This document shows, in pieces, positions 32,539-53,110 of a stretch of 64,000 nt of DNA. The position numbers and the translations under genes are program-made. The notes under the pieces were generated by a model. It made no database searches, was not told the origin of the DNA, and saw only the letters and a list, made by a program, of their open reading frames with translations. Origin of the DNA: an uncultured archaeon (GTDB lineage Archaea > Altiarchaeota > Altiarchaeia > IMC4 > QMZM01); contig CAZJVE010000002.1 of NCBI GenBank assembly GCA_964549685.1, positions 1 through 64,000 on the forward strand. The letters run 5' to 3'. The first letter of the stretch is position 1; each line of letters opens with the position of its first letter.

Positions 32539-32868
32539 TCAGGCCTTCTTCTCCAGTTTCTCCAATCTGTGCTCCAGGTCCCTGATTCTCCAGCCGCTGA
32601 CCTCCTTACCCTTTCCTCTCCTGAGGCTCTTTATCTCCTCATCGCCCTTCTTGAGCAGCTCCTGGTCAATCCCAAGAACCCTCTCAATATCGTCTAGCTC
32701 CCCCCTGTATCTAAACAGAACGCCGCATATCATCATGACGCATGAAAGCACGAGCAGGACGGCGCTGAAGCTGCTAATTCCCGTGTAAAAGACGTCCTTC
32801 AGCGACATTATTGCAAGAACTATCCCACTGCCTACAAAGACAATGGCAATGAAGAGGTTTGTTTTCAT
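32539..32868 (-). CDS. Small two-TM protein with C-terminal coiled coil
   Basis: Two hydrophobic helices; 4-bp overlap with the upstream gene. Confidence 0.65.
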   Translation of the reverse strand: MKTNLFIAIVFVGSGIVLAIMSLKDVFYTGISSFSAVLLVLSCVMMICGVLFRYRGELDDIERVLGIDQELLKKGDEEIKSLRRGKGKEVSGWRIRDLEHRLEKLEKKA

Positions 32869-34109
32869 TCTATACGTGTTTGCTCTCCTCCACCCTTTTG
32901 TTTAGGCTCCTCCGCCTTCCTATCCTCCTGATGGGGTTTCTCTACTACTCTATCCTCCTGCTTAGGCTCCTCCGCCTTCCTATCTTCATGACCTGGTTCC
33001 TCTACCGTCTTCTCTTCCTGCTTAGGTTCCTCACCCTTCTCATCATCCTGTTTGGCTTCCTCCACCACTCTACTCTCCTGCTTAGGTTCCTCAGCCCTCC
33101 CATCCCCCTGACTAGGGCCCTCCACTTTCTCGATAACGCTATTGTAAAGGTCCTCCAGCTCCTTGTCGAACCTATCCGCTGTTATGAACCTGCCCCCTCC
33201 GACACCATCCAGCTTCTCCTGCATGGATTCCAGGCTGGACAGCGAGCTGTTCGCATTGCTAATCATGGAATCGAGTTCTTTCTTCTTCCCCTCCATCTCC
33301 GATGCAATGTTCTTGATGGAGGTCACACTTGCTTCAAACTCGCCCTTTATCTTGCTTATATCGTCTTTGGTTACGAGCTCGTCGAAATGCACCTTCATCT
33401 TGCTCGCGTCCTTCATGAATACGTTGAATGATTTCTCGAGGGACTCGAATTTCTCGGACATCTTCAGGAACTCGTTGAATCTCTTCTGCATGTTGACATA
33501 GAGCTCCTCGACCTTGTCTGCGTGCTTCTCCACACTCAATTCAACCCTTTTGATATTCGCAAGCTCCTCTTTAATCTCCTCATTCAACTGTATGACTGCT
33601 TCCGTGCCCCGGAACGCGGCCGTTTCCGCCTTCAGGGTCTTTATCTCGTCCGCTATATGGCCCATCAACTCCTCATCGGCCTTCAGCTTTGCCTCAAGCT
33701 TTGTGACCTTGGCATCCTCCTTTTCCAGGTCCATCCTCAGCTTTTCTGGCTGCACCGAGCCTACCAAGTCAACTGCCCTGCTGGATTCCATCCTCATCCT
33801 GTTCATCCCCTTTTCCATCTCGACGCCGCTCCTGCGCAAGTCGCCAATCTCCTCGCTCATCCTCTGGAACCTCTGCTCGTTCAGCTGCCTTATCTCCCTG
33901 AACGACTGCACCTCGGCCTTCAGCTTATCGATGTCCATACCTATCTTTTTCGTGACATCGTCGGGGTCTCTCGGGATTATCTCCCTCTGGACCGGTTCTG
34001 CTGCCTCCGGCTCCTTGCTGCCGCGCACGTTCTCTTCGATGATTTTGTCTATGTCTGCCTGCTCATCAGCACCTTTGCCTCTTTTCAATATGTTGGGTAA
34101 TCCTACCAT
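32865..34109 (-). CDS. Coiled-coil protein with repetitive acidic C-terminal tail
   Basis: Heptad-rich; EEPKQE repeats. Confidence 0.75.
   Translation of the reverse strand: MVGLPNILKRGKGADEQADIDKIIEENVRGSKEPEAAEPVQREIIPRDPDDVTKKIGMDIDKLKAEVQSFREIRQLNEQRFQRMSEEIGDLRRSGVEMEKGMNRMRMESSRAVDLVGSVQPEKLRMDLEKEDAKVTKLEAKLKADEELMGHIADEIKTLKAETAAFRGTEAVIQLNEEIKEELANIKRVELSVEKHADKVEELYVNMQKRFNEFLKMSEKFESLEKSFNVFMKDASKMKVHFDELVTKDDISKIKGEFEASVTSIKNIASEMEGKKKELDSMISNANSSLSSLESMQEKLDGVGGGRFITADRFDKELEDLYNSVIEKVEGPSQGDGRAEEPKQESRVVEEAKQDDEKGEEPKQEEKTVEEPGHEDRKAEEPKQEDRVVEKPHQEDRKAEEPKQKGGGEQTRIE
32885..33105 (-). repeat. 30/60-bp tandem repeat encoding EEPKQE-x4 units
   Basis: ttaggctcctccgccttcctatc at 32902 and 32962; cttaggttcctc at 33021 and 33081. 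Confidence 0.85.
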
Positions 34110-34146: not shown

Positions 34147-34872
34147 CTAGTAATAGGGAGTCGGTATCCCCAGGAACAGCGTGCTCAGGACAAGCAGGAG
34201 CATTCCTGCAATGGCTGCCGTGAGCATCAGTGCAAGGAAGACGTACATCGCCCTGCTGAACCCGAATATTATCTTTATCCCGAGGTACAGGACATATATC
34301 GAATATGCAAGTGCTATGTAGTGTATAATCGTGCTCTCGAGAAACAGCCTGAATATGCCTGTAATGAGGGCAGGCACCATGAAGTACAATGTAAGCGACG
34401 TTGCCTCCTCGTTTGTTACAGCCTTGCCGACAAGACGCTCCCCCTTGAAACGAAGCACAATCGCTGTCGCTATTGTAACAAAGACGTATGACATCCAGTA
34501 GACATACCCCAGCTTTATCGACGTGATTACCGCATGCACCGGGTATGAGAAGAATATGAAGTGCAGCGTATACCCAAGGAAAACGGACAAACCAAGGAGC
34601 AGCAGCAGCCTGACCGTATAGTTGCCATACCAGAGCGCAATGAGAAGAGCGACAGAGAGCGCAACCAATAATATCATCCAGTCGGATATGAAAACGCAGG
34701 ACATCAGCGACAGCAGGGCCCAGAGGAACATGACGTAGATGTTCATGCCCTCCCTCTTCCCTAACCCTCTAAAGAAGTCCCCCGCAGCATACGGGTTCAT
34801 CAGCTTGGCCAGGTCTTTCAGGGTCCACCCAATGGCATCATGGATATCGGGAATATCAAGTCTGAATCCCAT
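34147..34872 (-). CDS. Multi-pass membrane protein, Yip1-like
   Basis: Start MGFRLDIP at 34872 (the longer ORF-track start overlaps thiI); AYSIYVLYLGIK resembles the Yip1 C-terminal motif. Confidence 0.6.
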   Translation of the reverse strand: MGFRLDIPDIHDAIGWTLKDLAKLMNPYAAGDFFRGLGKREGMNIYVMFLWALLSLMSCVFISDWMILLVALSVALLIALWYGNYTVRLLLLLGLSVFLGYTLHFIFFSYPVHAVITSIKLGYVYWMSYVFVTIATAIVLRFKGERLVGKAVTNEEATSLTLYFMVPALITGIFRLFLESTIIHYIALAYSIYVLYLGIKIIFGFSRAMYVFLALMLTAAIAGMLLLVLSTLFLGIPTPYY

Positions 34873-34905
34873 TTTAATTACTAATTGGTATAACCTCCAA
34901 TAAAA

Positions 34906-35997
34906 ATGTATAATATGGTCATTGTTCGCTATGGGGAGATATTCCTCAAGAGCGAGCCGGTCAGGAAGCGGTTCGAGGACAGGCTCCTGGAGGACATAAG
35001 GCGCAGGCTGAAGGGCGCCGAGTTCAAGATAAAGAGGAAGAGGCACAGAATCTATGTTGTAACCAAGGAGCCGGAAAAGGTTGCAGCGCTCCTTACCAGG
35101 GTGTTTGGGATTGTCTCTGTGAGTCCCGCGGTCGAGGCCTCCTCTGACATGGACGAGATAGTCGAGACGGCGCTTGCATTAGCAAAGGACGCAATCCTTC
35201 CTAACGAAACCTTCGCAGTCCGTGCAGAGCGCACAGGCAACCACGAATTCAGCAGCAAGGATGTGGAAGAAAAGGCCGGCAGGGAAATTCTGAATTCCCT
35301 TGATACTAAAGTAAATCTCAGCAACCCCGACAAGACCATATACGTTGAGGTCCGTGACGAGGTCGCATTCGTCTTCGATCGGAAAATAAAGGGCCCCGGG
35401 GGACTGCCCTCCGGAACGCAGGGCAAGCTAATCTCCCTCCTCTCCGCAGGAATCGACTCCCCAGTAGCTACATGGATGATGATGAAGCGCGGCTGCAGGA
35501 TAATTGCCCTCCATGCCGGGAACGAGAAGGAGGTCGAGGGAATTCTGGAGAGATTGAGGGAATATGGTAGTGACATTGAATTAAAATGTTTTGACATTTC
35601 CGGCATCCAGAAAGAAGCCAACAGAGTCGCCGGGAAATTCACCTGTCTAATCTGCAAGAGAACCATGTATAAAATTGCAGGAATTCTTGCAGAGAGGGAA
35701 CACGCCCTTGGAATCTGCACCGGCGAGAGCCTTGGACAGGTCGCGAGCCAGACCATCGACAACCTGGAGATTCTGGACAACGCAGCCAGCCTGCCGGTCT
35801 ACAGGCCATTAATCGGCATGGACAAGGAGGAGACCATAGCCATCGCAAAGAGGATTGGGACCTTCGAGCACGCCTCAAACAAGGGCTGCGACTTCGTCCC
35901 GAAAAAGCCGGCCACCAGGGCAGACCTCACCGAGATAGAGAAGCTCGAGGAAAAGCTCGGCATCAATGAACTGATTGAAAAATGTCTGAGCCAGTAG
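34906..35997 (+). CDS. thiI: tRNA 4-thiouridine synthase ThiI (THUMP + PP-loop, no rhodanese domain)
   Basis: VRYGEIFLKS, GGLPSGTQG, LLSAGIDSPVA, CLICKR, GESLGQVASQT, RPLIGMDK. Confidence 0.95.
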   Translation: MYNMVIVRYGEIFLKSEPVRKRFEDRLLEDIRRRLKGAEFKIKRKRHRIYVVTKEPEKVAALLTRVFGIVSVSPAVEASSDMDEIVETALALAKDAILPNETFAVRAERTGNHEFSSKDVEEKAGREILNSLDTKVNLSNPDKTIYVEVRDEVAFVFDRKIKGPGGLPSGTQGKLISLLSAGIDSPVATWMMMKRGCRIIALHAGNEKEVEGILERLREYGSDIELKCFDISGIQKEANRVAGKFTCLICKRTMYKIAGILAEREHALGICTGESLGQVASQTIDNLEILDNAASLPVYRPLIGMDKEETIAIAKRIGTFEHASNKGCDFVPKKPATRADLTEIEKLEEKLGINELIEKCLSQ

Positions 35998-36701
35998 TCT
36001 TGTTCTCTGCCAAGGATTTGGCAGGAAGGAACATCGTAAGCCGGTTGGGGAAGGCCACCAAGCTCTCTGACTCTGCCCTCTACATGGAAGGGCTCGACCT
36101 CGACCCCTCCGTCGCCATCGTCGCATCGCGCCACTCCTCAAAGTCAGGCACCCCGACTCTAACTTGCCACTCCCCCGGGAACTTCGGCAAGGCCGAGGCA
36201 GGAGGAAACCCAAGGCAGCTGGGAATCGCCCCGGCGCTCTATCTGAGGGAGGCTCTCCTCAATCTTAAAGAGAATTCCCCGGCGGGCTACGAGGTATCGT
36301 TCGAGGTCACCCACCACGGTCCCACAGCATTGAAATTCCCAATAATGTTTGTGGAAGTGGGAAGTACAGAGAAGGAATGGGGGGACATGCAGGCGTGCAG
36401 CTTCGTTGCAGGAGTAATAGAAAAATTATTGAATTCACCCCCCGCGGAAATTCCTCCCGCTATTGGTTTTGGTGGTGGCCATTATTGTAGAAAATTCTCA
36501 AAAATATCCGAATTTGCCCTTGGGCATATCTGCCCAAAGTACAGCATCCCCCACCTGGACGCAGAGATGCTGGAGCAGATGATAACCAGAACCGTCCCTG
36601 AACCAAAAGCAGCGCTGGTCGAGAAGAAGGGATTGGGGCCGGATAAGAGGAGGGTTTTGGCTCTCATAGAAGAAACTGAGCTTGAGGTTGTGGTGGTGTG
36701 A
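35982..36701 (+). CDS. dtdA: D-aminoacyl-tRNA deacylase (archaeal DTD2)
   Basis: SRHSS..PTLTCHSPGN, EVTHHGPT, FVEVGS, GFGGGHY, GHICPKY. Confidence 0.93.
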   Translation: MSEPVVLFSAKDLAGRNIVSRLGKATKLSDSALYMEGLDLDPSVAIVASRHSSKSGTPTLTCHSPGNFGKAEAGGNPRQLGIAPALYLREALLNLKENSPAGYEVSFEVTHHGPTALKFPIMFVEVGSTEKEWGDMQACSFVAGVIEKLLNSPPAEIPPAIGFGGGHYCRKFSKISEFALGHICPKYSIPHLDAEMLEQMITRTVPEPKAALVEKKGLGPDKRRVLALIEETELEVVVV

Positions 36702-38377: not shown

Positions 38378-38911
38378 TCAGGCCTTAATCTTTTTAGCTA
38401 TTTCAGCTCTGAGCTCTTCTTTTTCTTCTTTCGATATTCCAGCACATCCCTCTTTGCTGACTAATGAATCTACCATGTTAACTGCAAAATCAATTCGTTT
38501 TTCTTTTGGCATGTAAGGAAACATAGCATCAAGGCAATGCGGCATCATCTTCATCATCATATTTGGCATCAGCATACCTCCATCAACATTATCCTTACCC
38601 ATCATTTTCATCATTGCCGGCATCATTTTTTCCATGAATTTCGGCAGTGCATCCATTAGTTTAGGAATTGCTTCACTTAGTGAAGTAACTCCCTTCAATA
38701 TTTCAGGAAACAATTTTTTAAGAATATTAAACACATCATCTAAACTGATGTTTTTCATCATCCCACTCATCATCTGTGGCATAACCTCTGCCATATCGAC
38801 GCCTTCCATCATCTTTGGCATCATCTTAAGCATCATATCCTCTTTCTCCTCTTTACTCATTCTAGAAATCATCATATCCATCATCTTATCCATTATCCCC
38901 ATTTTACCCAC
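38378..38911 (-). CDS. Methionine-rich hypothetical protein
   Basis: About 38 Met in 177 aa; SD-like GAGGAGG upstream; AT-rich. Confidence 0.7.
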   Translation of the reverse strand: MGKMGIMDKMMDMMISRMSKEEKEDMMLKMMPKMMEGVDMAEVMPQMMSGMMKNISLDDVFNILKKLFPEILKGVTSLSEAIPKLMDALPKFMEKMMPAMMKMMGKDNVDGGMLMPNMMMKMMPHCLDAMFPYMPKEKRIDFAVNMVDSLVSKEGCAGISKEEKEELRAEIAKKIKA

Positions 38912-38976: not shown

Positions 38977-39951
38977 TTAACCCTCTCTCCTTTCCCTGTG
39001 TCTGGGCTCGAGTTCGTTCTCCTTGGCGAACTGGTCCAGTATTCCTCCCACCTTCACTTTCCTTGTGAGGTAGTCGGCAATCCTGACGGGGTACAGCTGC
39101 GGGTGGAGGAGGTCGTCCTCCCTAGCCCAGATTGCGACGAGGTTCTCCAAATCAGGGACGAAATCGGGGTATGCGAACTCCCACTTTACTGTGAGGGGGC
39201 TGCTCTTTCTGGAGGGAACATAGCTCAGCGCCTTCGAGGGCAGTTTCACATAGCAAATATTGACGCCGTCCTGCTCCTGCACCACGAACTCGTTCTCCTC
39301 GAGGGCGAGGTCGAACACCGCGATGTCCGTCAGCTTGGTTCCAAGGGACCTGGCGATTCCTACTGATGCAGAGTCCTCGACCATGCCGACGAGCCTTCCG
39401 GAATCCCTCAGCTTGTTGTAGAGGTTCATCAGCGTTTCACTGCCCTTGATTCTCTTGAGAACGGTGGAGATGCTGCCGTCGAGGAGGAGGTAGTCTGCAT
39501 TGGAATCCATCTCCTTGAAGGAGTCCAACAATGATTTGTATTCATATGCGACTCTAATAATATTTGAATTCTCCTCAATTCCATCATGGTTTTCAAATTT
39601 TCCGATGTCGAGAGTTGAGTTGTACTGCAGGTCCCTGTAAAGTATCTTCCTGCCGCCGACCAGCGGGTCTTCATGCATCGAGTTGTCGAAGATTCCGAAA
39701 AGGCTCACGGCATGAATCGCCCAGAGGGCTGCGAACCTCATCTCCTTGGACACAATGGATGAGTCGACTGCCAGAATCCTGGTCTCCCCTTCCTGAGCCC
39801 CGGGGTTCAGCTTCTTTATCGCGAACTGCGCCGATACTGCATCCCTCAGCTCTGCAGAATCAACATCTATGTGAATGGACTCTTTCAGTTTCAGAAACTT
39901 GTCCTCCAGAATCTCAGCATTAAAATCAAAATCAGGTGTTAGTTCCTTCAT
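38977..39951 (-). CDS. nurA: NurA-family nuclease
   Basis: ILAVDSS, LLLDGSI, VGMVEDS, YPVRIAD; start overlaps the end of the upstream ATPase gene. Confidence 0.8.
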   Translation of the reverse strand: MKELTPDFDFNAEILEDKFLKLKESIHIDVDSAELRDAVSAQFAIKKLNPGAQEGETRILAVDSSIVSKEMRFAALWAIHAVSLFGIFDNSMHEDPLVGGRKILYRDLQYNSTLDIGKFENHDGIEENSNIIRVAYEYKSLLDSFKEMDSNADYLLLDGSISTVLKRIKGSETLMNLYNKLRDSGRLVGMVEDSASVGIARSLGTKLTDIAVFDLALEENEFVVQEQDGVNICYVKLPSKALSYVPSRKSSPLTVKWEFAYPDFVPDLENLVAIWAREDDLLHPQLYPVRIADYLTRKVKVGGILDQFAKENELEPRHRERREG

Positions 39952-42900
39952 TCTTTCCGCTCTCAGCCTCCTTCAGCTCCTTGTCTATCGCCTCTCTCCT
40001 GGCCCTCAGATCGTCCATCTTCTTCCACTCTTCTTCCATCTGCGTGAAGATCTCCCAGCCCTCGCCCTTACCTTCCAGCTCGCCGATTTTCTTCTTCTCC
40101 GCCTCTATCTCCTGCTCTACCCTCTGTTTTTTCATTCTCAACTCCTCTATATTCGCTGCAGGGACCTCAACTCCCTCTGGCTTGGCCTCTTCTGGTTTCG
40201 GTGCAGTGCTAGGAGCGGCCTCTTTAACCGGAGCTGCCGTGGTTGTCGATGGCGCAGACACCTCTGACTCCAGACCAGATCTGATTTTTGCCAGCTCCTT
40301 CTCCAGGGCCTCCCTCTCTGCCCTCATATCGTCCATCATCTTCCACTCCTGCTCCATCTTCTGGAAGTCATCCCAGCCGACGTCTCCCTTCTTCGGTTTC
40401 TTATCCCCCAACTCCTCTTTCTTCCCCTCGAGCTCCGTTATCTTCACCTCCCGCTCGATTATGCCCTTCCACTTGTCCTTCATTTCCTTCAGCTCGTCAT
40501 GGAGCTTATCCTTATCCTCTACGAGACCCTTTCTCTCCTCCCTCACCTTGATCTTACTTTGCTTCCTCTCGGCATCGAGCCTCTTCTGCAGCTCTTCGTC
40601 GCTCTTCTTCAGGCCCTCCCTCTTGGTGGCGTCTTCTTCCAGTGCAACCTGGCCAAGAATATCCTTCCTCTTCGCGATTCCGCTCTGGATTTCACCGACC
40701 ATCTTCTGCGCTACCTTCTCCTCCTTGGCGCCTATCTCCTTGTCCATCTGAAGAATCATCTCCTTGTCCCTGCTTATCATCTCTCTGCGCTCTCCAATCA
40801 TCTTCTCCGCCTTCTTCAGGGCGTCCTCCTTTTTCTGTGCATCTTCCTTTAACCTCTGCTCCTCCTCCACCTGCTTCTTCTTCTCCTGTTCAATCTCTGT
40901 CGTCTTCATATCGCTGAGTTCCTTCAGCTTCTCCTCCCCGATTCTCAGCTTCTCCTTCTCCTTGAGGGCAACCTCCTCCCTGAGTATCTTTATCTTCTTG
41001 TGCTTCTTCAGGAGCTCCAGAACCTGGGCCCTGCTCTTGAGCTTTATCTCCTCGGCCTCGAGCTCACCTATTATCTTCTCTTCGTCCTCCCTCAGTTTCC
41101 TCTTCTCCTCCTCTATCTTCCTCATGGTCTCTTCCTGCTTCTGCCTGAGACTCGTCTCCCTATCACCTATCCTCTTCTCCTCTTTGTCCAGGATTGCAGA
41201 GAGTTCCCTCTCGTACGCCTTTATCTCTTCATCCCTCTTTGCGTCCCACTCGGATTTTATGGCCCGCTCCTCCTCGGAAATCTTGCCTGTCTTCAGCCTC
41301 TCAACATAATCCTCTATCCTCTCTGCGAGAGAATCGATGTAGAGGTCGACAATGCCGAACGAGCCGCCCTTTATGTTGTCTATGGCAAGCTTCATCTCCA
41401 ACTCTATGTCGAAGATGTCCAGCTCCGCCTTCCTGAGGGTTTCGAGCTTAGGCATGAATCCATCAATCTTTTCGTTATACTTCGCATACTGTCCAAGCTT
41501 TTCGTTGGACATGCTGTTCGCGTTGTGAAGGGCCGGCCTGAAGCTTACAAAGTAGGGGTTGCCCTTGTTGTATTCAGGATTCTGCAGCATGCCCTCCCCG
41601 ACATTGGCCTTGACCACTGACTGGTAGATGTAGCCTCCATACTTCAGGTTTATCCTGTCCAGATCCTCCTTGTACCGGGTCTGCATCTGAATCTCCGTCC
41701 CTATGTTTGCCTTTATCTGGCCTATGAAGTCCTTTAGAACTTGTGATATGAGAATCACGCCGATTCCGAAGCGCCTGAATTCCCTCACGGCCTTCTCTAT
41801 CTGGACGAAGCCCTTGCCGACCCCGCCGAACTTCGGCAGAATCCTGTGAATCTCGTCAAACACCAGGATTACCTTGAGCTTTGGGCTGTCACCGAACTTT
41901 GCGCTGAATATGTCCTCTATAGCATTCGATATGAACACCTCCATGTCGGGATTGTTCAGCTCCCTCATGTAGAAGACGCTTATCTCTCCGGGATGTATGT
42001 GGTGCTTCAGGTCTATCCTCTGGTTGGCGTCTTTTATCGCATAAACGTTGCCCTTGAAGGCCTTCGCGTCTGCATTCTTCATCTTGTAGTTGCCATACCT
42101 CTTGAACATCTCATCATCCTTGTTTGGCTCCAGGAAGCCGGTCCACTGGGCGGTGGGGTCGAACACTATAACGGAGACGTCGCTCTTCATCAGCGCCTCC
42201 TCGACGAGCACCTGGGCAGAGTGGGTCTTTCCGCAGCCAGTTGTTCCTGCCATTAGGGTATGTGATGCAAGCGAATCCAGATAGAGATAAGCGTCGGCGT
42301 TCATCTCCGCTATCTTCCCCATGTATCCTGATTTCGGACCCTTGTGCGGAAGCGCGTCAAATTTGATTGACTCCAGATACCTCTTCCTCCTTTCACGCCC
42401 CTTTTTGTACCTCCCGTAAAAGGACATGAGGATTCCAAGCGCGATGAGCAGGAAGAACCCCAGTACTATCCTGGCGCCCGTAATCTCTGCGATAATCGGG
42501 TCAAGCCTGTCAATAAGTGACCTTCTGATAGTAAGCTTCTCGACGTCGCTCGCCTTCGCTGTTTTGTTCCCCTCCCCCGTATAATAGAGAACCCCAGTAA
42601 TCTCATATTCCGTGTCCACAACCTCCCAGGGGATTATCAGTTCAGTGCTTGTTTCAAGCACGACGTTCTCCGGCAGTATGATTCCGCTTTCCTTCTTGAC
42701 CACAATGGTGCCCATTGCTGGGTCCTTCATTATCACTTCCAGGAGGGTTTCCGTCCTTCTCTGGACCAGGTTGGATATCTTGGACCTGACGACGACGGTG
42801 CCCCCTGGTTTGTTCTCAATACTGTCCAGCCCTATATCCAGGTCCAGGGAGACCTCCGTCACAACCTCGAGGACCTCGAGTTTTAGCGGTATCGTCCTTA

Positions 42901-43261
42901 CCTTTCCGTTAACGTTTATGAGTACGTCTCCCTCATAGAGCCCTGGGTTGGAATTCTTGTTTATGTAGCCCCTTACTCTCAGATATCCCGTCTCATTGGG
43001 TGCTATCCTGACGTAACCCTTCTCTATCTCAGGGACTATATTCTTAATCCCCTGGCTTATGGAAGAAACCTCGACAAGTATCCCTTCATCGTCGTTGTTC
43101 GTTATGGTCAGCAGACTGTCGACAAAATCCCCCGCATATTCCCTTACAGATATATTGCTGGGCGTTATCTCCACCGACTGCCCGGATACAGAGGCAATAC
43201 TAACCAGAAGTAGGAGCGCAACCAAAAATCCTGTGTTTAATCTGTTATTGTGAATATGCAT
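39932..43261 (-). CDS. Membrane-anchored HerA/FtsK-superfamily (DUF87) ATPase with extracellular Ig-like domains and C-terminal coiled coil
   Basis: Signal peptide; beta-rich ectodomain; TM IVLGFFLLIALGILMSFY followed by RYKKGRERRKR; Walker A GTTGCGKT; VFDPT; Walker B ILVFDE; REFRRFGIGVILISQ. Confidence 0.88.
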   Translation of the reverse strand: MHIHNNRLNTGFLVALLLLVSIASVSGQSVEITPSNISVREYAGDFVDSLLTITNNDDEGILVEVSSISQGIKNIVPEIEKGYVRIAPNETGYLRVRGYINKNSNPGLYEGDVLINVNGKVRTIPLKLEVLEVVTEVSLDLDIGLDSIENKPGGTVVVRSKISNLVQRRTETLLEVIMKDPAMGTIVVKKESGIILPENVVLETSTELIIPWEVVDTEYEITGVLYYTGEGNKTAKASDVEKLTIRRSLIDRLDPIIAEITGARIVLGFFLLIALGILMSFYGRYKKGRERRKRYLESIKFDALPHKGPKSGYMGKIAEMNADAYLYLDSLASHTLMAGTTGCGKTHSAQVLVEEALMKSDVSVIVFDPTAQWTGFLEPNKDDEMFKRYGNYKMKNADAKAFKGNVYAIKDANQRIDLKHHIHPGEISVFYMRELNNPDMEVFISNAIEDIFSAKFGDSPKLKVILVFDEIHRILPKFGGVGKGFVQIEKAVREFRRFGIGVILISQVLKDFIGQIKANIGTEIQMQTRYKEDLDRINLKYGGYIYQSVVKANVGEGMLQNPEYNKGNPYFVSFRPALHNANSMSNEKLGQYAKYNEKIDGFMPKLETLRKAELDIFDIELEMKLAIDNIKGGSFGIVDLYIDSLAERIEDYVERLKTGKISEEERAIKSEWDAKRDEEIKAYERELSAILDKEEKRIGDRETSLRQKQEETMRKIEEEKRKLREDEEKIIGELEAEEIKLKSRAQVLELLKKHKKIKILREEVALKEKEKLRIGEEKLKELSDMKTTEIEQEKKKQVEEEQRLKEDAQKKEDALKKAEKMIGERREMISRDKEMILQMDKEIGAKEEKVAQKMVGEIQSGIAKRKDILGQVALEEDATKREGLKKSDEELQKRLDAERKQSKIKVREERKGLVEDKDKLHDELKEMKDKWKGIIEREVKITELEGKKEELGDKKPKKGDVGWDDFQKMEQEWKMMDDMRAEREALEKELAKIRSGLESEVSAPSTTTAAPVKEAAPSTAPKPEEAKPEGVEVPAANIEELRMKKQRVEQEIEAEKKKIGELEGKGEGWEIFTQMEEEWKKMDDLRARREAIDKELKEAESGKNEGTNT

Positions 43262-43301
43262 TGTAGCCTGATTGGTTGAATTCCGCCACGGAAGTCATGC
43301 G

Positions 43302-44027
43302 TTATTCCTTTGCACCATCTTCCTTCAATAGAGTGAATGGAACCTCTTTCGAGGATATCGAAACTCCCTCAGATGTGATGGTGACCGGCCTTATGTCCGA
43401 AACTATCTTCGTACCCCGTATTTTCACAACCCAGATACATCGCTCATTATTGGCTCTATATCTCGACCAGAACATTATTATGAGGCCATCGGATAGAAAG
43501 TGCTCTGCCCCGTATCTCAGCTTCAGAAAGCTCTCCGAGAGCTCCGCGGTCATTAAAGTCGTGCACTTGTTCTTCCTCATCATCTCAAGGAATCTCAGCA
43601 TATGGATTCTCCTGGAGGCTTCCTCCTTGAAGAGGTAGTTGAAGAGAGTTACTGAATCGAGGACCATCCTGCTGGCCTGGGTCTCCTTTATTACGTCTCT
43701 TAGAATTCCAAAGTCCATGCCCAGGTCCATATCGGTTCCTTCAAAAATCTCTCTCCCGAGAATGGCTATCTTCCCGGCATCCTCGTACTCCCTTACGTTC
43801 CACCCAAATCCTGCCGCATAGTTTTCCACGTCCTCTACGGTATCCTCTACCGTTATGTAAACGCCTGGGTCATCATACTTGGCAACTCCGTTGTAGATGT
43901 ACTGCATTGCAAGATTACTCTTTCCTATCCCTGGAGGCCCAGAAATAACGGTAGTGCTGCCCTTGGGCAGACCCCCGTCCATCATATCGTCGAGCCCGGG
44001 AATTCCGGTCTTTAGCTTTTCTACCAT
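43302..44027 (-). CDS. Single-domain KaiC-like (RAD55/RecA-superfamily) ATPase
   Basis: KTGIPGLD..GGLP, GPPGIGKS, YITVED, VLDSV, VVKIRGT. Confidence 0.92.
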   Translation of the reverse strand: MVEKLKTGIPGLDDMMDGGLPKGSTTVISGPPGIGKSNLAMQYIYNGVAKYDDPGVYITVEDTVEDVENYAAGFGWNVREYEDAGKIAILGREIFEGTDMDLGMDFGILRDVIKETQASRMVLDSVTLFNYLFKEEASRRIHMLRFLEMMRKNKCTTLMTAELSESFLKLRYGAEHFLSDGLIIMFWSRYRANNERCIWVVKIRGTKIVSDIRPVTITSEGVSISSKEVPFTLLKEDGAKE

Positions 44028-44065
44028 TTTAACACCGTATTATTTTATTAACAGGATACTTTATA

Positions 44066-44947
44066 TCATATCTCCGTCCTGAGGACGTTCATCTCTCTCT
44101 TCAGGAGATGGAGTTGCTGGGTATCTATCGTTGAAGGGTCCAGGGGGACTATGAGCCTTGAATTGCTCATGGAGATGCTGTCCTTCAGGGACTGGACGAA
44201 CTGCAGAATCTCCTTGTAGCCGTTCTGGACTATTAAATATTCAAGGCCGTCGAGCATTATAACGCTTTCACCGACCTCCTTCATGAATTCCTTCATCGTG
44301 TGGCTCAATTCCAGCAGGTCCGTTGGCTCGATGTTCTTCTCCTCCGTCTTCTCCCTTGTCAGCCAGATTATCGGCGTTCTCTCGAGCTCGTACACCTGCC
44401 TTATCTGCGCCGGGTTCTGTCTCGTTATGTAAAGGCCGCTGATTCCGTGGGTTACTAAATCGACAAAAATTTCATTGCTCTTGATTGGCTTTTCCTCATT
44501 GACCATGTAGGTCTTGCCCTCGTCCAGCCTGTGCCTCATCTTCGCATAGCTTCTCCTCTCCGCTACTGCCTTTATGGGCGCGAACTCATACTTCTTCCCC
44601 TCCTCCATCGGCGAGTAGAGGAGATAGGCCCCCACGGTCATCGAAATGGCCACAATGGTCCTGCCGACCACGCTCATAAGCTGGATTACGGGGTCGCTGC
44701 TGAAAATCAGATAGATGCTCGATATGTTAAACAGCAGGATTCCAAGCACTCCAATAAAGAGCCAGGTCCATGCCCTGGATCCCTTCGCGCCCTTGGTGTA
44801 CAGCTTCCTGTAGAGCTTAATCCAGATAACGACGGCAAGAAGCGAGATTACCACTGCGAATATGTTAGTCAGAAATTCCGTGGTGGGGAAGACCTCCCCC
44901 ATAACAGATATCACCTTCCCTAAAACAGGCATCGTTGTCCCATCCAT
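44066..44947 (-). CDS. Membrane protein with C-terminal DUF835 (inactive KaiC-like) domain
   Basis: Three TM helices, then GLYITRQNP...IIWLT...IEPTDL...VIMLDGLEYLIVQNG. Confidence 0.9.
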   Translation of the reverse strand: MDGTTMPVLGKVISVMGEVFPTTEFLTNIFAVVISLLAVVIWIKLYRKLYTKGAKGSRAWTWLFIGVLGILLFNISSIYLIFSSDPVIQLMSVVGRTIVAISMTVGAYLLYSPMEEGKKYEFAPIKAVAERRSYAKMRHRLDEGKTYMVNEEKPIKSNEIFVDLVTHGISGLYITRQNPAQIRQVYELERTPIIWLTREKTEEKNIEPTDLLELSHTMKEFMKEVGESVIMLDGLEYLIVQNGYKEILQFVQSLKDSISMSNSRLIVPLDPSTIDTQQLHLLKREMNVLRTEI

Positions 44948-45004: not shown

Positions 45005-46240
45005 ATGTGCCTATCGATAGCGGAAGAGCAACTTATCGAGCTCGCTAAACGGTTTGGAACTCCCCTTTACGTCTATAGCGAAAGCAGAATCAGGGAGAAT
45101 TTCCGGGAATTCAAGGCCGCCTTTCCTAATGCAAAGGTATGCTACGCCTACAAGGCAAACACATCTCTTGCCATATGCAACATCCTGCGCCAAGAAGGGG
45201 CATCTGCCGATGTGGTATCAACAGGCGAGCTCAGGACGGCCCTCAAGGCCGGCGTAAAGCCCGAGGACATAATTTTTACGAATAATGCAAAGACAAGAGA
45301 GGAACTGGAATTTGCAATTGATTATGGAGCCATCATCGATGTGGATTCACTGGATGAGTTGAATTCCATTGCCGAGATTGGCAAGCCTGCAAAAATCTCC
45401 TTCCGCGTGAATCCCGCAGTCGACCCGAAGACTCACCCGAAGATAGCCACTGGCATGAAGGGTTCGAAGTTTGGATTGCATCTGGAGAAGGACATCGCGC
45501 TGGAGGCATGTAAGAAAGCCAGCCAGCTCGACAACATAACAATCGTTGGAGTGCAGATGCACATCGGCTCTCAGATAACGGACATGACTGCCTTTGAGGA
45601 TGCTACCAAAAAGCTCATGGACTTCGTGCTGCAGCTGAAGGAGTTGGACATAACCCTAAAGTTCATCGACATCGGCGGAGGGCTCGGAATCTCCTACAAG
45701 GGAGAAGAAACCCCGAAGCCAAAGGACCTTGCAGACAAAGTCCTCCATATAATAAAAGAATATAATAATAAGCTTGGTTATGAGCCGGAGCTCTGGCTCG
45801 AGCCCGGCCGCTACCTTGTTGCTAATGCAGGGGTCCTCCTCTGCCAGGTGCAATCAGTCAAGAAGACCCCCTACAGGAATTTCGTTAATGTAGACTGCGG
45901 CTTCAACACCCTTGCAAGGCCGGCGATGTACGACTCCTTCCACCGCATCAAGGCCCTCGGCAAAACAGGAGCAGAAGAAACCTACGACATAGCCGGAAAC
46001 ATCTGCGAGTCAGGGGACATCCTTGGAAAGGACAGGCAGCTCCCTGCCCTGGAGCATGGAGACATTCTCGCAGTCCTGGACGCAGGGGCATACGGATTCT
46101 CCATGGCGAGCAGGTACAACGCAAGGCCCCGCCCGGCGGAAATCCTGGTCAGGGAGAATTCGACTGAAATCATCCGCGAGCGCGAGACCTGGGACGACCT
46201 CTGGAGAGGCGAGAAGGTCCCTGATGATTTGAATAGATAG
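45005..46240 (+). CDS. lysA: Diaminopimelate decarboxylase
   Basis: FGTPLYVY, YAYKAN, HIGSQ, DIGGG, EPGRY, GNICESGD, GAYG..M.SRYN.RP. Confidence 0.97.
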   Translation: MCLSIAEEQLIELAKRFGTPLYVYSESRIRENFREFKAAFPNAKVCYAYKANTSLAICNILRQEGASADVVSTGELRTALKAGVKPEDIIFTNNAKTREELEFAIDYGAIIDVDSLDELNSIAEIGKPAKISFRVNPAVDPKTHPKIATGMKGSKFGLHLEKDIALEACKKASQLDNITIVGVQMHIGSQITDMTAFEDATKKLMDFVLQLKELDITLKFIDIGGGLGISYKGEETPKPKDLADKVLHIIKEYNNKLGYEPELWLEPGRYLVANAGVLLCQVQSVKKTPYRNFVNVDCGFNTLARPAMYDSFHRIKALGKTGAEETYDIAGNICESGDILGKDRQLPALEHGDILAVLDAGAYGFSMASRYNARPRPAEILVRENSTEIIRERETWDDLWRGEKVPDDLNR

Positions 46241-46430: not shown

Positions 46431-48482
46431 ATGAGTTCTATCGGGCCAAAAATTCTCTGGATATCGGTTCTGCTGATTCTGACCGCCTCTGCCACTACAG
46501 CCGAATGCGTAACCGACGGCGTTAACGACAACTGTCTCGCCGTTCTGGAATACGGGGACGGGAGCCTTGAGATAGACCCCGACAACCCTGAGAGCATATA
46601 CAAAGCCCTGAATCTCGTGAGCCCGGACTCACGCTCGCTGGACGAATTCCTCGGCACCGAGGAAGGCGAAGAGATAATAGCCCTGCTATTCGACCAGCCC
46701 CGCGGCCCCTGGAAGTACGGGAACTTTCTCCTGGACCCGAGGGGCGCAGACCTCGACCTCTATGCCGAGAAACTCTCTGGACTCATAAGCGAAGAGAACA
46801 AAGAGAAGTTCGAGGAATCGCCCTACGGCTACATCGTGAAGCTTCGGGAGGAACCGCTGAGTTCGTACGGAAAAATATCGACAGCTGAATTGAATTCTCA
46901 CAGGGATAATATTCTCGATTCCCACAAAATTGCACTGAATTACATAAATAATAATTTCCCCGACTCACGGGTAAGGCGTGAATTCACCAATGTCTTCAAC
47001 GGCATCTCCCTGGAAATCTCCGCCGATGAGGCGAAGCAGCTGAAGGGCCTCGACGTAGTCGAGGAAATCTATCCGATAAAGAGGATTCAAATCTCTCTGA
47101 CCGAGAGCGTTTCCATGATTAATGCGGATGATGCATGGGGCCTCCTTGATGACCTTGGAAAGAACGTTACCGGCAAGGGCATCCTCATAGCAATAGTCGA
47201 CACGGGGGTCGATTACACCCATACCGATTTCGGCGGCTGCCCCGCCGACTCCTACCTCTCTTGGGACTCCTGCCCCAAGGTCGCGGGGGGCTACGACTTC
47301 GTGAGTGATTTTGCCGACCCCATGGATGATGCAGGCCATGGAACGCACTGCGCCGGGATAGCGCTCTCCAACGGCTCCCTGAAAGGCGTTGCCCCGGATG
47401 CAAGGCTGCTGGCCTACAAGGTCCTTGACTCCGGAGGTGGAGGATATGACGACGACATCATAGCGGGAATAGAGCGGGCGGTCAATGAATCGGCCGATGT
47501 GATAAGCCTCAGTCTCGGGGGGAGCGGAAACCCCGACGATGCCCTGTCACAGGCCGTTGATAATGCTGCCAATGCCGGAGCGGTCGTAGTCGTTGCGGCG
47601 GGCAACAGCGGCCCGGATGCCAGAACCGTCGCATCTCCAGCCTGTGCCAGGAAGGCAATAACAATCGGGGCGACCTACAAGGAGAGCGATAATACCTCAA
47701 CATCCGAGCTGTACCTCTTGAACGGCACTGCAGCCGAGGAGATAGACTCACAACCGCTCGAAGAATCCGCACTAACGCCCGAGGGCGGGATAATGGCGGA
47801 GCTCCTCTTCGCATCCCTCGGCTATGCAGGAAATTTCACCGGCCAGAATTTCACGGGAAAGATTGCGCTGATTGGAAGAGGCGAATTCACCTTCCAGGCT
47901 AAGGTTCAGAATGCCTATGATGCCGGAGCCATCGGAACAATAATCTACAATAACGAACTCGGGAATTTCCTCGGAACCCTCGTAAACCAGTCGGAGATTC
48001 CGGCGGTCTCCATATCCCTGAGCGATGGCGCGCGCCTTCTGGGCCTTGTAAATAGCAGCACAGTGACCGTGAACCTGAGCGTTCTCAGCTACGAGGAATT
48101 AATAGCAGATTTCAGCTCGAGAGGCCCTGCATACATCTACAACAAGCCCGACCTGGTGGCTCCGGGAGCACTCATCTGCGCCTCGCAGTGGGACGACGTC
48201 TATTCGGACAGCCCCTGCTACGATTCAGAGCATGCCGCAATCTCGGGCACCTCCATGGCGACACCGCACGTTGCAGGAGCAGCAGCACTAATCCTGCAGA
48301 AGCATACTGGCTGGAGCCCTGACCATGTCAAGTACGCACTGCTGACTACTGCCAGGGACTATGGCTATGATGTCAATGCGCAGGGGGCGGGCCTCATCGA
48401 CGCCTACAAGGCGGTCAACCTCACAAACAAACCACCCATTGCAATCATCTCGAACATCACAGGACTCGAATACAGGACCTAG
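46431..48482 (+). CDS. Secreted S8 subtilase with I9 propeptide and PA domain
   Basis: Catalytic motifs IVDTGVD, HGTHCAG, AAGNSG, SGTSMATPHVAG. Confidence 0.95.
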   Translation: MSSIGPKILWISVLLILTASATTAECVTDGVNDNCLAVLEYGDGSLEIDPDNPESIYKALNLVSPDSRSLDEFLGTEEGEEIIALLFDQPRGPWKYGNFLLDPRGADLDLYAEKLSGLISEENKEKFEESPYGYIVKLREEPLSSYGKISTAELNSHRDNILDSHKIALNYINNNFPDSRVRREFTNVFNGISLEISADEAKQLKGLDVVEEIYPIKRIQISLTESVSMINADDAWGLLDDLGKNVTGKGILIAIVDTGVDYTHTDFGGCPADSYLSWDSCPKVAGGYDFVSDFADPMDDAGHGTHCAGIALSNGSLKGVAPDARLLAYKVLDSGGGGYDDDIIAGIERAVNESADVISLSLGGSGNPDDALSQAVDNAANAGAVVVVAAGNSGPDARTVASPACARKAITIGATYKESDNTSTSELYLLNGTAAEEIDSQPLEESALTPEGGIMAELLFASLGYAGNFTGQNFTGKIALIGRGEFTFQAKVQNAYDAGAIGTIIYNNELGNFLGTLVNQSEIPAVSISLSDGARLLGLVNSSTVTVNLSVLSYEELIADFSSRGPAYIYNKPDLVAPGALICASQWDDVYSDSPCYDSEHAAISGTSMATPHVAGAAALILQKHTGWSPDHVKYALLTTARDYGYDVNAQGAGLIDAYKAVNLTNKPPIAIISNITGLEYRT

Positions 48483-48483
48483 A

Positions 48484-53060: not shown

Positions 53061-53110
53061 TTTGAATATATTGGTTGGAATATTTATATCTACTTTTATA
53101 ATTAAGTTAC

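Follow-up and report, generated by a model that had tools for sequence, protein, structure and literature searches.

A possible membrane-associated module of DUF835, KaiC-like, HerA-class ATPase and NurA proteins in a marine altiarchaeon

The gene cluster and its predicted products

The window analysed here is a stretch of 64,000 nt from the genome of a marine member of the Altiarchaeota (G000, 85% complete). Four co-oriented ORFs, P0001 to P0004 in order of reading, lie on its minus strand and span positions 44947-38977. A further gene on the same strand, 4.9 kb downstream of the NurA gene, encodes a coiled-coil protein of a family designated F2. The features are as follows:

44066..44947, minus strand: P0001, 293 aa, transmembrane DUF835 protein (Pfam DUF835, E 7.9e-41)
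43302..44027, minus strand: P0002, 241 aa, single-domain KaiC-like ATPase (Pfam KaiC, E 1.1e-56)
39932..43261, minus strand: P0003, 1109 aa, membrane-anchored HerA/VirB4-class ATPase, whole gene
42527..43174, minus strand: P0003 ectodomain, residues 30-245, two β-sandwich (Ig/FnIII-like) domains, from the strands of the AF2 model
42386..42478, minus strand: P0003 single transmembrane helix, residues 262-292 in the AF2 model, hydrophobicity peak at 255-285
41522..42331, minus strand: P0003 ATPase core, residues 311-580, with Walker A at 338-346 and Walker B at D469/E470/H472
39935..41281, minus strand: P0003 charged C-terminal tail, residues 661-1109, 51% E/K/R/D
38977..39951, minus strand: P0004, 324 aa, NurA-family nuclease (Pfam NurA, 43.7 bits)
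32865..34109, minus strand: F2 coiled-coil protein, 414 aa (HMM of the F2 family, E 5e-80)

The ORF list confirms the layout described in an earlier note on this DNA, with gaps of 38 bp (P0001-P0002) and 40 bp (P0002-P0003), an overlap of 20 bp (P0003/P0004), and neither mre11 nor rad50 in the locus. Every junction between the cluster genes is spanned by contigs of run X4, which is not flagged as the source, so the gene order is not an assembly artefact. The domain identities given in the note (DUF835, KaiC, HerA-like ATPase and NurA) also hold, each with a Pfam score above its cut-off.

P0001 scored 139.5 bits against the DUF835 profile (cut-off 33.1). A hydrophobicity scan placed three hydrophobic segments at its N-terminus, at about residues 21-50, 59-85 and 87-105, and these precede a cytoplasmic DUF835 domain at residues 153-286. 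P0001 has no P-loop; the site corresponding to the KaiC P-loop reads ‘THGIxGLxITR’ (alignment A4), and comparison of A4 with P0002 by hhalign gave no significant match (E 0.29). DUF835 appears under the name ‘iKaiC’ in a table within the available part of Galperin 2018 (PMC5847659). P0002, one of about 12 KaiC-family matches in G000, scored 192.2 bits against Pfam KaiC (cut-off 26.6) and has an intact Walker A motif (GPPGIGKS); its score against NCBIfam KaiC_arch_3 was 149 bits, under the cut-off of 249.

The P0003 structure is an AF2 model of residues 1-660 only (pLDDT 83.7). In this model an N-terminal helix (residues 7-21, read from sequence as part of a Sec signal peptide spanning residues 1-27) is followed by β-sandwich domains at 30-131 and 139-245, which match RbmA and WxLIP in Foldseek searches (E about 4e-11 to 7e-11), and by the one long helix that coincides with the hydrophobicity peak. 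The ATPase core directly follows the transmembrane helix and is itself followed by helices at 586-658. The receptor-like topology of the earlier note is thus borne out by the model as far as the core, and the coiled-coil nature of the tail is probable from its charge composition. Within the tail a W-rich motif occurs twice, at 963-998 and 1069-1104; both repeats are kept in P0005-P0011 and P0013 and in loci L024, L025 and L026, and the tail is a separate ORF in L027.

Pfam DUF87 and HerA_C matched P0003 with 37.6 and 36.7 bits (cut-offs 23.2 and 22), in each case through the P-loop end of the profile only (residues 315-409). The Walker A (A338-G-T-T-G-C-G-K345-T) and Walker B (D469-E470-x-H472) motifs are invariant in two alignments of relatives (A1 and A3; n=24 and n=38). 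No HAS barrel was found in the Pfam scan or in the model of residues 1-660. When the modelled core was compared with known structures by VIA-align, the nearest folds were HerA-class DNA translocases and helicases (HerA 4d2i, Z 25.2; HerA 9x1m, Z 25.0), followed by VirB4 (4ag6, Z 24.2); TrwB, FtsK and EssC scored lower (18.9, 17.8 and 17.2).

P0004, whose Pfam score exceeds the cut-off of 21, gave an AF2 model with pLDDT 90.2 for which the top Foldseek matches were Sulfolobus solfataricus NurA (2ygk, first, E 2e-11), 9x1n and 3tal. Residues D63, E137, D158 and K236 are invariant among 22 relatives and Y294 is nearly so; by order they match D58, E116, D133, K202 and Y298 of the S. solfataricus enzyme, as given in the available text of PMC3326311. 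It is the sole NurA found in G000. With ATPase and nuclease motifs intact, both P0003 and P0004 look active.

Gene neighbourhoods in Altiarchaeota and across DPANN

The order DUF835, KaiC (or a CBS-DUF835 protein), ATPase, NurA was also found in L025/G029, L026/G020 and L046/G009, where the ATPases are 71%, 44% and 35% identical to P0003. Adjacency to nurA is therefore not unique to the window genome, a point that the earlier note had left to be checked; it occurs in four genomes from two families, f1 and f5. The ATPase and NurA genes overlap by 20 bp in G000, 38 bp in L025 and 4 bp in L026. L161/G009 has a weak F2-like ORF (E 2.6e-6) that stops 4 bp short of NurA.

NurA is, however, no regular partner of this ATPase family. 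Among 12 informative Altiarchaeota genomes holding both genes, a set that leaves out three with a short NurA contig, they adjoin in 4; in the other 8 they are found on separate contigs, with NurA next to other, known genes. Across DPANN, NurA is present in 3/79 ATPase-centred loci. Genome G023 (L027, 93% complete) keeps DUF835-KaiC-ATPase and has no NurA match. In eight f1 relatives a solitary NurA gene is flanked by lysA on one side and dtdA-thiI-Yip1 on the other; lysA and dtdA-thiI are its housekeeping neighbours in the window too, so the adjacency could reflect a landing site rather than an operon. The NurA tree follows taxonomy, and no fused form of NurA was found.

Both genes have recurrent links to DUF835. 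Of the 21 ATPase-bearing Altiarchaeota genomes, 6 (G000, G029, G030, G020, G023 and G009) have DUF835 just upstream of the ATPase gene, with KaiC between the two in G000, L024, L025, L026 and L027; the ATPases of these last five form a clade in a quick tree (SH-aLRT 99). L051 encodes one giant ORF in which a DUF835 domain (Pfam E 2.5e-21) comes after the ATPase domain, and L046 a CBS-DUF835 fusion. In Woesearchaeota loci a transmembrane protein with four CBS domains lies upstream of the ATPase. On the NurA side, 12 of the 29 other NurA loci have no ATPase and a DUF835 gene in the same orientation immediately before NurA (spacing between a 34-bp overlap and a 336-bp gap), and two more loci have the order KaiC, a 310-aa protein, NurA. 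A co-oriented AMP-phosphorylase-like gene is found downstream of NurA in 15/29. Motor and nuclease appear to share a link through the DUF835 membrane protein; related genomes are non-independent samples, and these co-occurrence counts overstate the support.

The P0003 family is DPANN-wide and uncharacterised, with 547 stretches in representative genomes; it is near-ubiquitous in several DPANN phyla rather than patchy, and no close relatives were found on viral contigs. Several ATPase copies per genome are common (two in G000, three in G044), and giant extracellular fusions occur. The commonest neighbour is F2 (47/79 loci), large secreted PKD proteins adjoin in 37/79, and one to three KaiC genes in 13/79. 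ORF 32865-34109 is the sole match in G000 to an HMM of 47 F2 sequences; its look-alikes in the Atlas are DPANN hypothetical proteins, and it is probably a distal part of the system. The gene after the P0003 paralogue (G000:C4:32025-36410) has a deviant Walker A motif of the ParA/MinD type, as read by eye from the translation.

Elsewhere in G000 a soluble HerA is encoded at C2:98154-99704 (DUF87 E 1.8e-38; HAS barrel E 8e-5). It lies 55 kb from NurA and adjoins neither mre11 nor rad50. G000 has no herA-mre11-rad50-nurA operon.

A DUF835/KaiC membrane hub and its alternatives

The best explanation, put forward tentatively, is that DUF835/KaiC forms a membrane hub coupling a membrane-tethered translocase and NurA, and that the locus encodes a membrane-associated module of composite make-up. 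P0001, the proposed hub, with its three transmembrane segments and P-loop-less DUF835 domain, would together with the active KaiC-like P0002 make up a membrane-bound regulatory and anchoring platform, tied on one side to P0003 and on the other to the phylum's own NurA. By analogy P0003 would form a ring, each subunit of which is anchored in the membrane by a single helix; the two Ig-like domains would lie outside and the long charged tail inside. The KaiC/DUF835 pair may gate or position the motor, which would reel nucleic acid, presumably DNA, at the inner face of the membrane, where NurA recruited to the platform would cut it. The products would feed salvage or turnover, more likely than canonical double-strand-break resection; the hint of salvage is the AMP-phosphorylase-like gene. 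The direction of transport and every protein-protein contact in this scheme are what we infer.

In favour of the hub are the upstream DUF835, the L051 fusion and the adjoining KaiC genes on the ATPase side, the DUF835-NurA adjacency in a sister family, and the four-gene order with its overlaps. Against it stand the genomes with the genes apart, the G023 module, the solitary NurA of the f1 relatives, the lack of fused NurA, and the usual neighbours of the ATPase family, which are secreted and coiled-coil proteins and not nucleases. The soluble HAS-barrel HerA also counts against it, as does the lack of this domain in P0003: according to the part of PMC3326311 available, the HAS barrel mediates HerA-NurA binding in S. 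solfataricus and is required for it. Since P0003 has a transmembrane helix at that end instead, NurA cannot dock on it as on HerA. The membrane-tethered translocase-nuclease of the earlier note is thus supported in its domains, topology and recurrent order, and weakened by the irregular presence of NurA and the missing HAS barrel.

A rival reading, only slightly less likely than the hub, has two unrelated functions side by side, in which NurA has stayed at its ancestral place and acts in trans with the soluble HerA in DNA end resection, and DUF835-KaiC-ATPase and F2 are a DPANN-wide envelope machine that landed or stayed nearby and that might serve protein export, surface assembly or the handling of nucleic acid. 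The solitary NurA between lysA and dtdA-thiI-Yip1, the taxonomic NurA tree, the separated genes, G023, the soluble HerA, the missing HAS barrel and the family-wide F2 and PKD neighbours are all consistent with it. It accounts less well for ATPase/NurA start/stop overlaps that persist in three genomes whose ATPases are 44-71% identical, for recurrence of the order in G009, which belongs to another family and has other flanks, for the tie of NurA to DUF835, the first gene of the cluster, in 12 other genomes, and for a soluble HerA so far from NurA and beside neither mre11 nor rad50.

It is improbable that P0003 acts in DPANN archaea like FtsK, as a motor for chromosome clearing or segregation anchored in the membrane at the division site, with NurA as an occasional helper trimming trapped DNA. 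The membrane anchor and HerA-class fold, the widespread, largely chromosomal family and the ParA/MinD-type gene beside the paralogue would suit such a motor, as would the HerA-domain protein placed at midcell in Haloferax volcanii by the accessible part of a 2026 preprint (10.64898/2026.07.16.738847); but the ORF list has no division gene in the locus, multiple ATPase copies per genome are common, and a surface role agrees better with the large secreted proteins nearby and the giant extracellular fusions. Most improbable is anti-mobile-element defence, in which, on the model of SIR2-HerA or DUF4297-HerA, a HerA-like ATPase would activate an effector nuclease. The structural scores of defence HerA proteins come close to those of archaeal HerA (8xaw, Z 24.5) and P0003 matches PADLOC mad8 (E 4.5e-17, residues 331-539), but no further PADLOC component was matched, NurA and DUF835 gave no PADLOC match, the neighbours are housekeeping genes and not a defence island, NurA is vertically inherited, and the ATPase family is not patchy.

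Comparison with known systems

The HerA-NurA end-resection complex (S. solfataricus, T. kodakarensis; 4d2i, 2ygk, 9x1m) shares with this locus the fold of the ATPase core, a HerA-type ‘DExH’ Walker B, the NurA fold with its catalytic D/E/D plus K/Y set, and adjacent, overlapping genes. It differs in that P0003 has a signal peptide, two Ig-like domains and a transmembrane helix in place of the HAS barrel, and a 450-aa charged tail after the core; the cluster has no mre11/rad50 linkage, has KaiC and DUF835 genes upstream, and keeps the ATPase-NurA adjacency in few genomes. Defence HerA systems (SIR2-HerA/Nezha, DUF4297-HerA) resemble P0003 in core fold (Z 20-24.5) and in pairing an ATPase with a nuclease-type partner, in addition to the mad8 match. 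Unlike them, the cluster has no SIR2 or DUF4297 effector, its ATPase has membrane topology, and its context is housekeeping and chromosomal with vertical inheritance.

In FtsK/SpoIIIE, the type IV coupling proteins TrwB/TraD/TcpA and EssC/EccC, too, a membrane anchor at the N-terminus precedes a cytoplasmic ATPase that belongs to the same superfamily. Their structural Z scores against P0003 are nevertheless lower, P0003 falls far under the profile cut-offs (Pfam FtsK 17.7 against 24; TraD 27.9 against 366), and its anchor is one transmembrane helix plus an Ig-like ectodomain rather than a polytopic domain. For Ced/Ted-type systems, Beltran 2023, in the part available (PMC9905601), proposes that HerA-NurA makes ssDNA. 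Ced/Ted DNA import (CedB/TedB, VirB4-like) also places a membrane-associated HerA/VirB4-class ATPase in an archaeon, and VirB4 is tied with HerA in the structural comparison of P0003. In contrast, the ORF list of the P0003 locus has no CedA/CedA1-like polytopic channel or pilin genes, P0003 scores 27.6 bits against NCBIfam CedD (cut-off 600), and it bears the transmembrane helix and ectodomain itself.

Signalling modules of archaea that combine KaiC-like ATPases with inactivated KaiC (DUF835, MEDS) were reportedly described by Makarova, Galperin and Koonin in 2017. The present cluster agrees with such modules in setting an active single-domain KaiC beside a P-loop-less DUF835 on a membrane protein, and its arrangement fits their proposed role as signal hubs. 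The portions of the literature searched showed no link of KaiC/DUF835 to a HerA-class motor or to NurA, which the 2017 paper may already describe. The cluster departs from these modules in its outputs, which here appear to be a HerA-class motor, in one case as a gene fusion, and NurA.

The four-gene cluster and its products

The layout described in an earlier note on this DNA, namely four co-oriented genes with gaps of 38 and 40 bp and a 20-bp overlap, agrees exactly with the ORF list, and every gene junction of the cluster is bridged by contigs from a run that is not flagged as a possible source. The locus is present, as DNA contigs, in public marine and seawater metagenome runs, and a look-up of RNA runs listed none that contains it. 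The assembly comprises 1.17 Mb in 27 contigs and is 85% complete; the nearest relatives in the databases bear names that assign the organism to Candidatus Altiarchaeota.

Cluster genes and flanking genes in the window
44947..44066, minus strand: P0001, DUF835 protein, 293 aa (ORF list; Pfam E 7.9e-41)
44027..43302, minus strand: P0002, KaiC-like ATPase, 241 aa (ORF list; Pfam E 1.1e-56)
43261..39932, minus strand: P0003, ATPase with DUF87 and HerA_C matches, 1109 aa (Pfam about 3e-9, P-loop end only)
39951..38977, minus strand: P0004, NurA, 324 aa (Pfam 3.1e-11, 43.7 bits)
45005-46240: lysA (name read from the translation)
35982-36701: dtdA (name read from the translation)
34906-35997: thiI (name read from the translation)
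34147-35046: Yip1-like gene (weak Pfam match)
32865..34109: member of the coiled-coil family F2 (F2 profile E 5e-80), the sole F2 match in the genome

A 177-aa, extremely Met/Lys-rich protein is encoded 65 bp downstream of NurA (38378-38911, minus strand); it has no family match and is not conserved at the equivalent place in L025, the locus of a close relative. As judged from translations, the cluster is followed at 46431-55507 by a series of genes for large secreted proteins, among them a subtilisin-like protease as well as two proteins bearing many repeats of the 'DLDGDG' type; next, at 55500-56411, comes a small protein with CARDB-like repeats and a TM segment at its C-terminus.

P0004 belongs to the NurA family and has the NurA-type RNase H-like fold. 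Its Pfam score exceeds the cut-off of 21 bits (PF09376), and a Foldseek search with its AF2 model (pLDDT 90.2) placed NurA 2ygk (E 2.1e-11), 9x1n_G and 3tal at the top; the G chains of three HerA-NurA complexes (9x1n, 9x1m and 9x1l) were among the first matches. Moreover, D63, E137, D158 and K236 do not vary among 22 sequences, in which Y294 is at least 90% conserved. This set resembles the S. solfataricus set D58/E116/D133/K202/Y298, as given in PMC3326311, the correspondence being one of order and spacing and not of residue-level superposition. No longer protein containing this NurA was found, which is weak evidence on fusions.

P0002 scores 192.2 bits against the Pfam KaiC family (PF06745; cut-off 26.6) and retains an intact Walker A motif (GPPGIGKS); the NCBIfam equivalog cut-offs were not reached, and the protein therefore falls in no named KaiC subfamily. 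P0001 scores 139.5 bits against DUF835 (cut-off 33.1) and contains three hydrophobic segments. Galperin et al. (2018, PMC5847659) describe DUF835 as an inactivated KaiC-like domain, 'iKaiC'. The DUF835 alignment contains no GxxGxGK[ST] P-loop motif. Its hhalign comparison with P0002 keeps the P-loop and Walker B regions in register and falls short of significance (E 0.29). A complex prediction combining two copies of NurA with the cytoplasmic domain of the DUF835 protein (residues 125-293) gave a score of 0.00, which counts neither for nor against a contact.

Architecture and class of the ATPase

An AF2 model of P0003 residues 1-660 was generated from 38 relatives (pLDDT 83.7). It places a helix at the N-terminus (residues 7-21), which reads as a signal peptide in the sequence, followed by two β-sandwich domains (30-131 and 139-245) and a single long hydrophobic helix (262-292) that coincides with a hydrophobicity peak at 255-285. 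The ATPase core (311-580) comes straight after this TM helix and leads into a helical region (586-658), while the remaining residues, 661-1109, are 51% charged. Walker A (A338-GTTGCGK345-T) and Walker B (D469-E470-x-H472) are invariant in alignments of 24 and of 38 relatives. The latter motif is of the HerA type, an acidic pair followed by His, with DEIH aligning to the EEAH of S. solfataricus HerA (4d2i).

Structural comparison of the core using VIA-align gave a Z-score of 25.2 with 4d2i (rmsd 2.9 over 251 aligned residues) and 25.0 with T. kodakarensis HerA (9x1m). VirB4 (4ag6) scored 24.2, and defence HerAs, DndH-C and VirB4 all fall within about 1 Z of HerA, whereas TrwB (18.9), FtsK (17.8) and EssC (17.2) are clearly lower. 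Judged by these structural Z-scores, which stand in place of a tree of reference HerA, CedB, VirB4 and TraD sequences, the modelled P0003 core is that of a HerA/VirB4-class motor, with VirB4 tied with HerA so that the two are not separable by this measure. The Pfam matches to DUF87 (37.6 bits) and HerA_C (36.7 bits) are both above their cut-offs and cover profile positions 4-69 of 220 and 9-98 of 502, respectively.

No Pfam match to a HAS barrel was obtained for P0003, and in the AF2 model the TM helix runs directly to the core at residue 311. The model thus puts the membrane at the end of P0003 where HerA has its HAS barrel. In S. solfataricus, according to Blackwood et al. [quoted passage not shown] In the P0003 tail a W-rich motif (about 35 aa, GWxxFxxMExEWxxMDxxR...) occurs twice, at residues 963-998 and 1069-1104 (window 39950-40375); it is kept in relatives down to 46% identity and occurs as a single copy in the split tail ORF of the relative L027. 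A role for this motif as a NurA-docking site was ruled out, as it is present in L027, which has no NurA, and missing from L046, which has one.

The ATPase family is large, with 201 protein clusters among the scored candidates and 547 confirmed stretches in GTDB representative genomes, and is found in Altiarchaeota and in Woese-, Pace-, Micr-, Nano-, Aenigm- and Nanohalo-archaeal MAGs. Database names are limited to 'DUF87/HerA-like/DUF853 domain-containing' or 'hypothetical'. A viral or mobile origin was sought in viral contigs, where just four distant P-loop matches (26-46%) were found. In some members the ATPase is fused behind a very large, presumably extracellular, N-terminal part (L036, 3530 aa; L049, 3909 aa; L038, 2921 aa). 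A search of publication texts found none that deals with this ATPase family or with NurA from Altiarchaeota; the 2017 work of Makarova et al. (mBio) on KaiC hubs in archaeal signalling may already have linked DUF835/KaiC to genes for HerA-like proteins or NurA.

The source genome itself holds a single NurA (at 85% completeness) and five DUF87 matches, P0003 among them. One is a membrane-anchored paralogue of 1461 aa (G000:C4:32025-36410; locus L005, G000:C4:33303-36473) that has the domain order of P0003 and a core 56% identical to it; it is followed by a gene whose translation reads as having a Walker A of the ParA/MinD type and by one for an 820-aa charged protein, and the same trio is seen in the relative locus L030. 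Another is a 764-aa VirB4-like protein (L004, G000:C8:13387-16782) encoded between membrane-protein genes of 326 and 378 aa, possibly a Ced/Ted- or conjugation-like module. The two others are soluble HerA-like proteins, one of which (C2:98154-99704) has a HAS barrel (E 8e-5). The gene for the latter (locus L002, G000:C2:96981-100625) lies about 740 bp from one that reads as FtsZ by its N-terminal sequence, with one small opposite-strand gene between. The earlier note had remarked on the absence of mre11 and rad50 from the cluster, and neither lies in the locus. A Rad50-like gene (C1:118181-120436), six scattered metallophosphatases and the two soluble HerA-like genes lie far apart, and no canonical HerA-NurA-Mre11-Rad50 operon is seen in the 85% complete genome.

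Gene neighbourhoods of the ATPase and of NurA

Among the best 79 ATPase loci, DUF835 and KaiC genes lie directly upstream of the ATPase only in the closest relatives, L024, L025, L026 and L027 (83, 71, 44 and 40% identity, respectively). Together with P0003 these ATPases form one clade (SH-aLRT 99) in a quick tree that excluded domain matches of <250 residues and used the genome's own soluble HerAs as outgroups. Locus L046 (35% identity) has two DUF835 genes, one of them fused to four CBS domains. The suggestion that the four genes constitute one system held in part: NurA follows the ATPase, and the order recurs, in L025, L026 and L046, but in L027 there is no NurA within 10 kb downstream of the ATPase and its genome (G023, 93% complete) gave no NurA match. 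L024 is uninformative about NurA, since its sequence ends at the end of the ATPase.

Across 61 Altiarchaeota genomes, the source genome included, the NurA profile matched 36 (33 strongly for this subfamily), DUF835 occurred in 44 and the ATPase family in 21, with NurA and the ATPase both present in 15. The two are adjacent in four of these 15 (G000, the source genome; G029, L025; G020, L026; and G009, L046), so that their adjacency is not unique to this genome; in eight they are on different contigs, with NurA beside other known neighbours, and in three the NurA contig is too short to judge.

At the 29 other NurA loci examined, an AMP-phosphorylase-like gene (Pfam glycosyl-transferase-3 plus PYNP_C) follows NurA in the same orientation in 15. 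Twelve loci, all of them from family f6, have no ATPase and a co-oriented DUF835 gene as the nearest one upstream of NurA; the two genes overlap by up to 34 bp or are separated by up to 336 bp. In two loci a KaiC gene and then a gene for a 310-aa protein precede NurA. DUF835 is NurA's most frequent specific neighbour, and genomes in which the KaiC-ATPase pair separates the two are a minority. Divergent lysA is found at most four genes upstream at 10 loci, directly upstream in nine. Eight f1 relatives have NurA between lysA and dtdA-thiI, the housekeeping genes that also flank the cluster in the window. This shared position, together with a NurA tree that follows taxonomy, indicates that NurA has been vertically inherited. 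In none of the surveyed Altiarchaeota genomes was NurA found beside a soluble HerA.

The co-oriented and often overlapping string of TM-DUF835, NurA and AMP-phosphorylase-like genes is seen at L148:6461-9873 and also at L149-L154, L156, L157, L159, L160 and L142 (sister family), and suggests a role for NurA outside HerA-dependent end resection. At L177:3844-8830 and L179:1127-6106 a 669-aa gene is followed by a member of another NurA-like family, which is divergent, has about 330 aa and matches the NurA profile weakly; two genes further on, the N-terminus of a translated product reads as KaiC-like, and this NurA-like gene may therefore also lie near a KaiC-like gene.

Around the best 79 ATPase loci the most frequent companions are the F2 coiled-coil protein (47 loci), for which no named relative was found via Pfam or Atlas, and a large secreted PKD protein (37). 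A small RHH-like protein and a charged protein of roughly 200 aa each occur at 21, and one to three KaiC genes at 13. Woesearchaeota loci have an upstream TM protein with four CBS domains. The clusterings behind the ATPase and NurA neighbour counts excluded ORFs of <80-90 aa or overlapping longer ORFs, and the greedy gene caller can miss real genes (e.g. the L046 NurA). In the giant ORF at L051:2-12871 (about 4290 aa), the ATPase domain is joined to a DUF835 domain at the C-terminus (E 2.5e-21), which argues that the two domains work together.

Possible roles and comparison with known systems

DUF835/KaiC proteins are common to the associations of the ATPase (adjacent in six of 21 genomes, with one fusion and KaiC paralogues in 13 further DPANN loci) and of NurA (DUF835 in 12 genomes), and this is best explained by a shared membrane platform. 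The DUF835/KaiC pair would form that platform, joining a membrane-tethered HerA-class translocase to NurA; we infer ring formation, the DNA substrate, the direction of transport and all contacts, and hold the coupling as a tentative reading that may well prove wrong. The AMP-phosphorylase-like gene next to NurA in the sister family is a hint that nucleic-acid turnover or salvage would be served more than break repair. The main alternative, held almost as probable, is that NurA has just stayed at its ancestral position and works with the soluble HerA, the ATPase module being a separate envelope machine of unspecified substrate; the separation of the two genes in eight genomes and the housekeeping flanks of NurA would fit this.

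An FtsK-like division role for the ATPase is improbable. A defence role draws on the PADLOC assignment of P0003 as mad8 (60.5 bits), P0002 giving a weak P-loop match and NurA and DUF835 none in the same search, but the housekeeping context and vertical inheritance speak against it and make it very unlikely.

In an unlikely but more far-reaching scenario, the DPANN-wide membrane HerA-class ATPases, with their Ig-like or giant adhesin-like ectodomains and their coiled-coil and KaiC/DUF835/CBS regulatory partners, would be an unrecognised nucleic-acid transfer machine of the cell envelope, wired via DUF835 to NurA in Altiarchaeota and to AMP phosphorylase in a sister family, with imported or turned-over DNA being cleaved at the membrane and its products passed on to nucleotide salvage. 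The locus bears on two questions about DPANN archaea, namely where their nucleotides come from and whether DNA passes between them and other cells. The ATPase family sets a motor of the DNA-translocase class into the membrane itself, in some cases at one end of extracellular proteins of 3000-4000 residues, and recurrent KaiC-type coupling would supply the proposed archaeal 'KaiC hub' with a concrete mechanical output. NurA is usually assumed to act as an end-resection nuclease bound to HerA; in the surveyed Altiarchaeota its neighbours often include a membrane protein with DUF835 and an AMP-phosphorylase-like gene and never a soluble HerA, which questions whether this is always so.

Several known systems resemble the cluster in part. 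HerA defence systems carry a cognate effector (SIR2, DUF4297 or other mad genes), and this locus has none. The Ced/Ted importer comprises a CedA/TedA channel and the pilin-like CedA1/TedC proteins, which are not among the neighbours here, and NCBIfam CedD scores 27.6 bits on P0003 against a cut-off of 600. With respect to type IV coupling proteins and FtsK, P0003 is below the family cut-offs (TraD profiles, 27.9 against 366 and 22.7 against 647; Pfam FtsK_SpoIIIE, 17.7 against 24) except for TrwB_AAD_bind, which scores 25.5 against 20.5 but over 43 P-loop residues only. Canonical HerA has an N-terminal HAS barrel, as does the soluble HerA of this genome, whereas P0003 lacks one; P0003 appears to be a motor of the HerA class whose topology and partners are both new.
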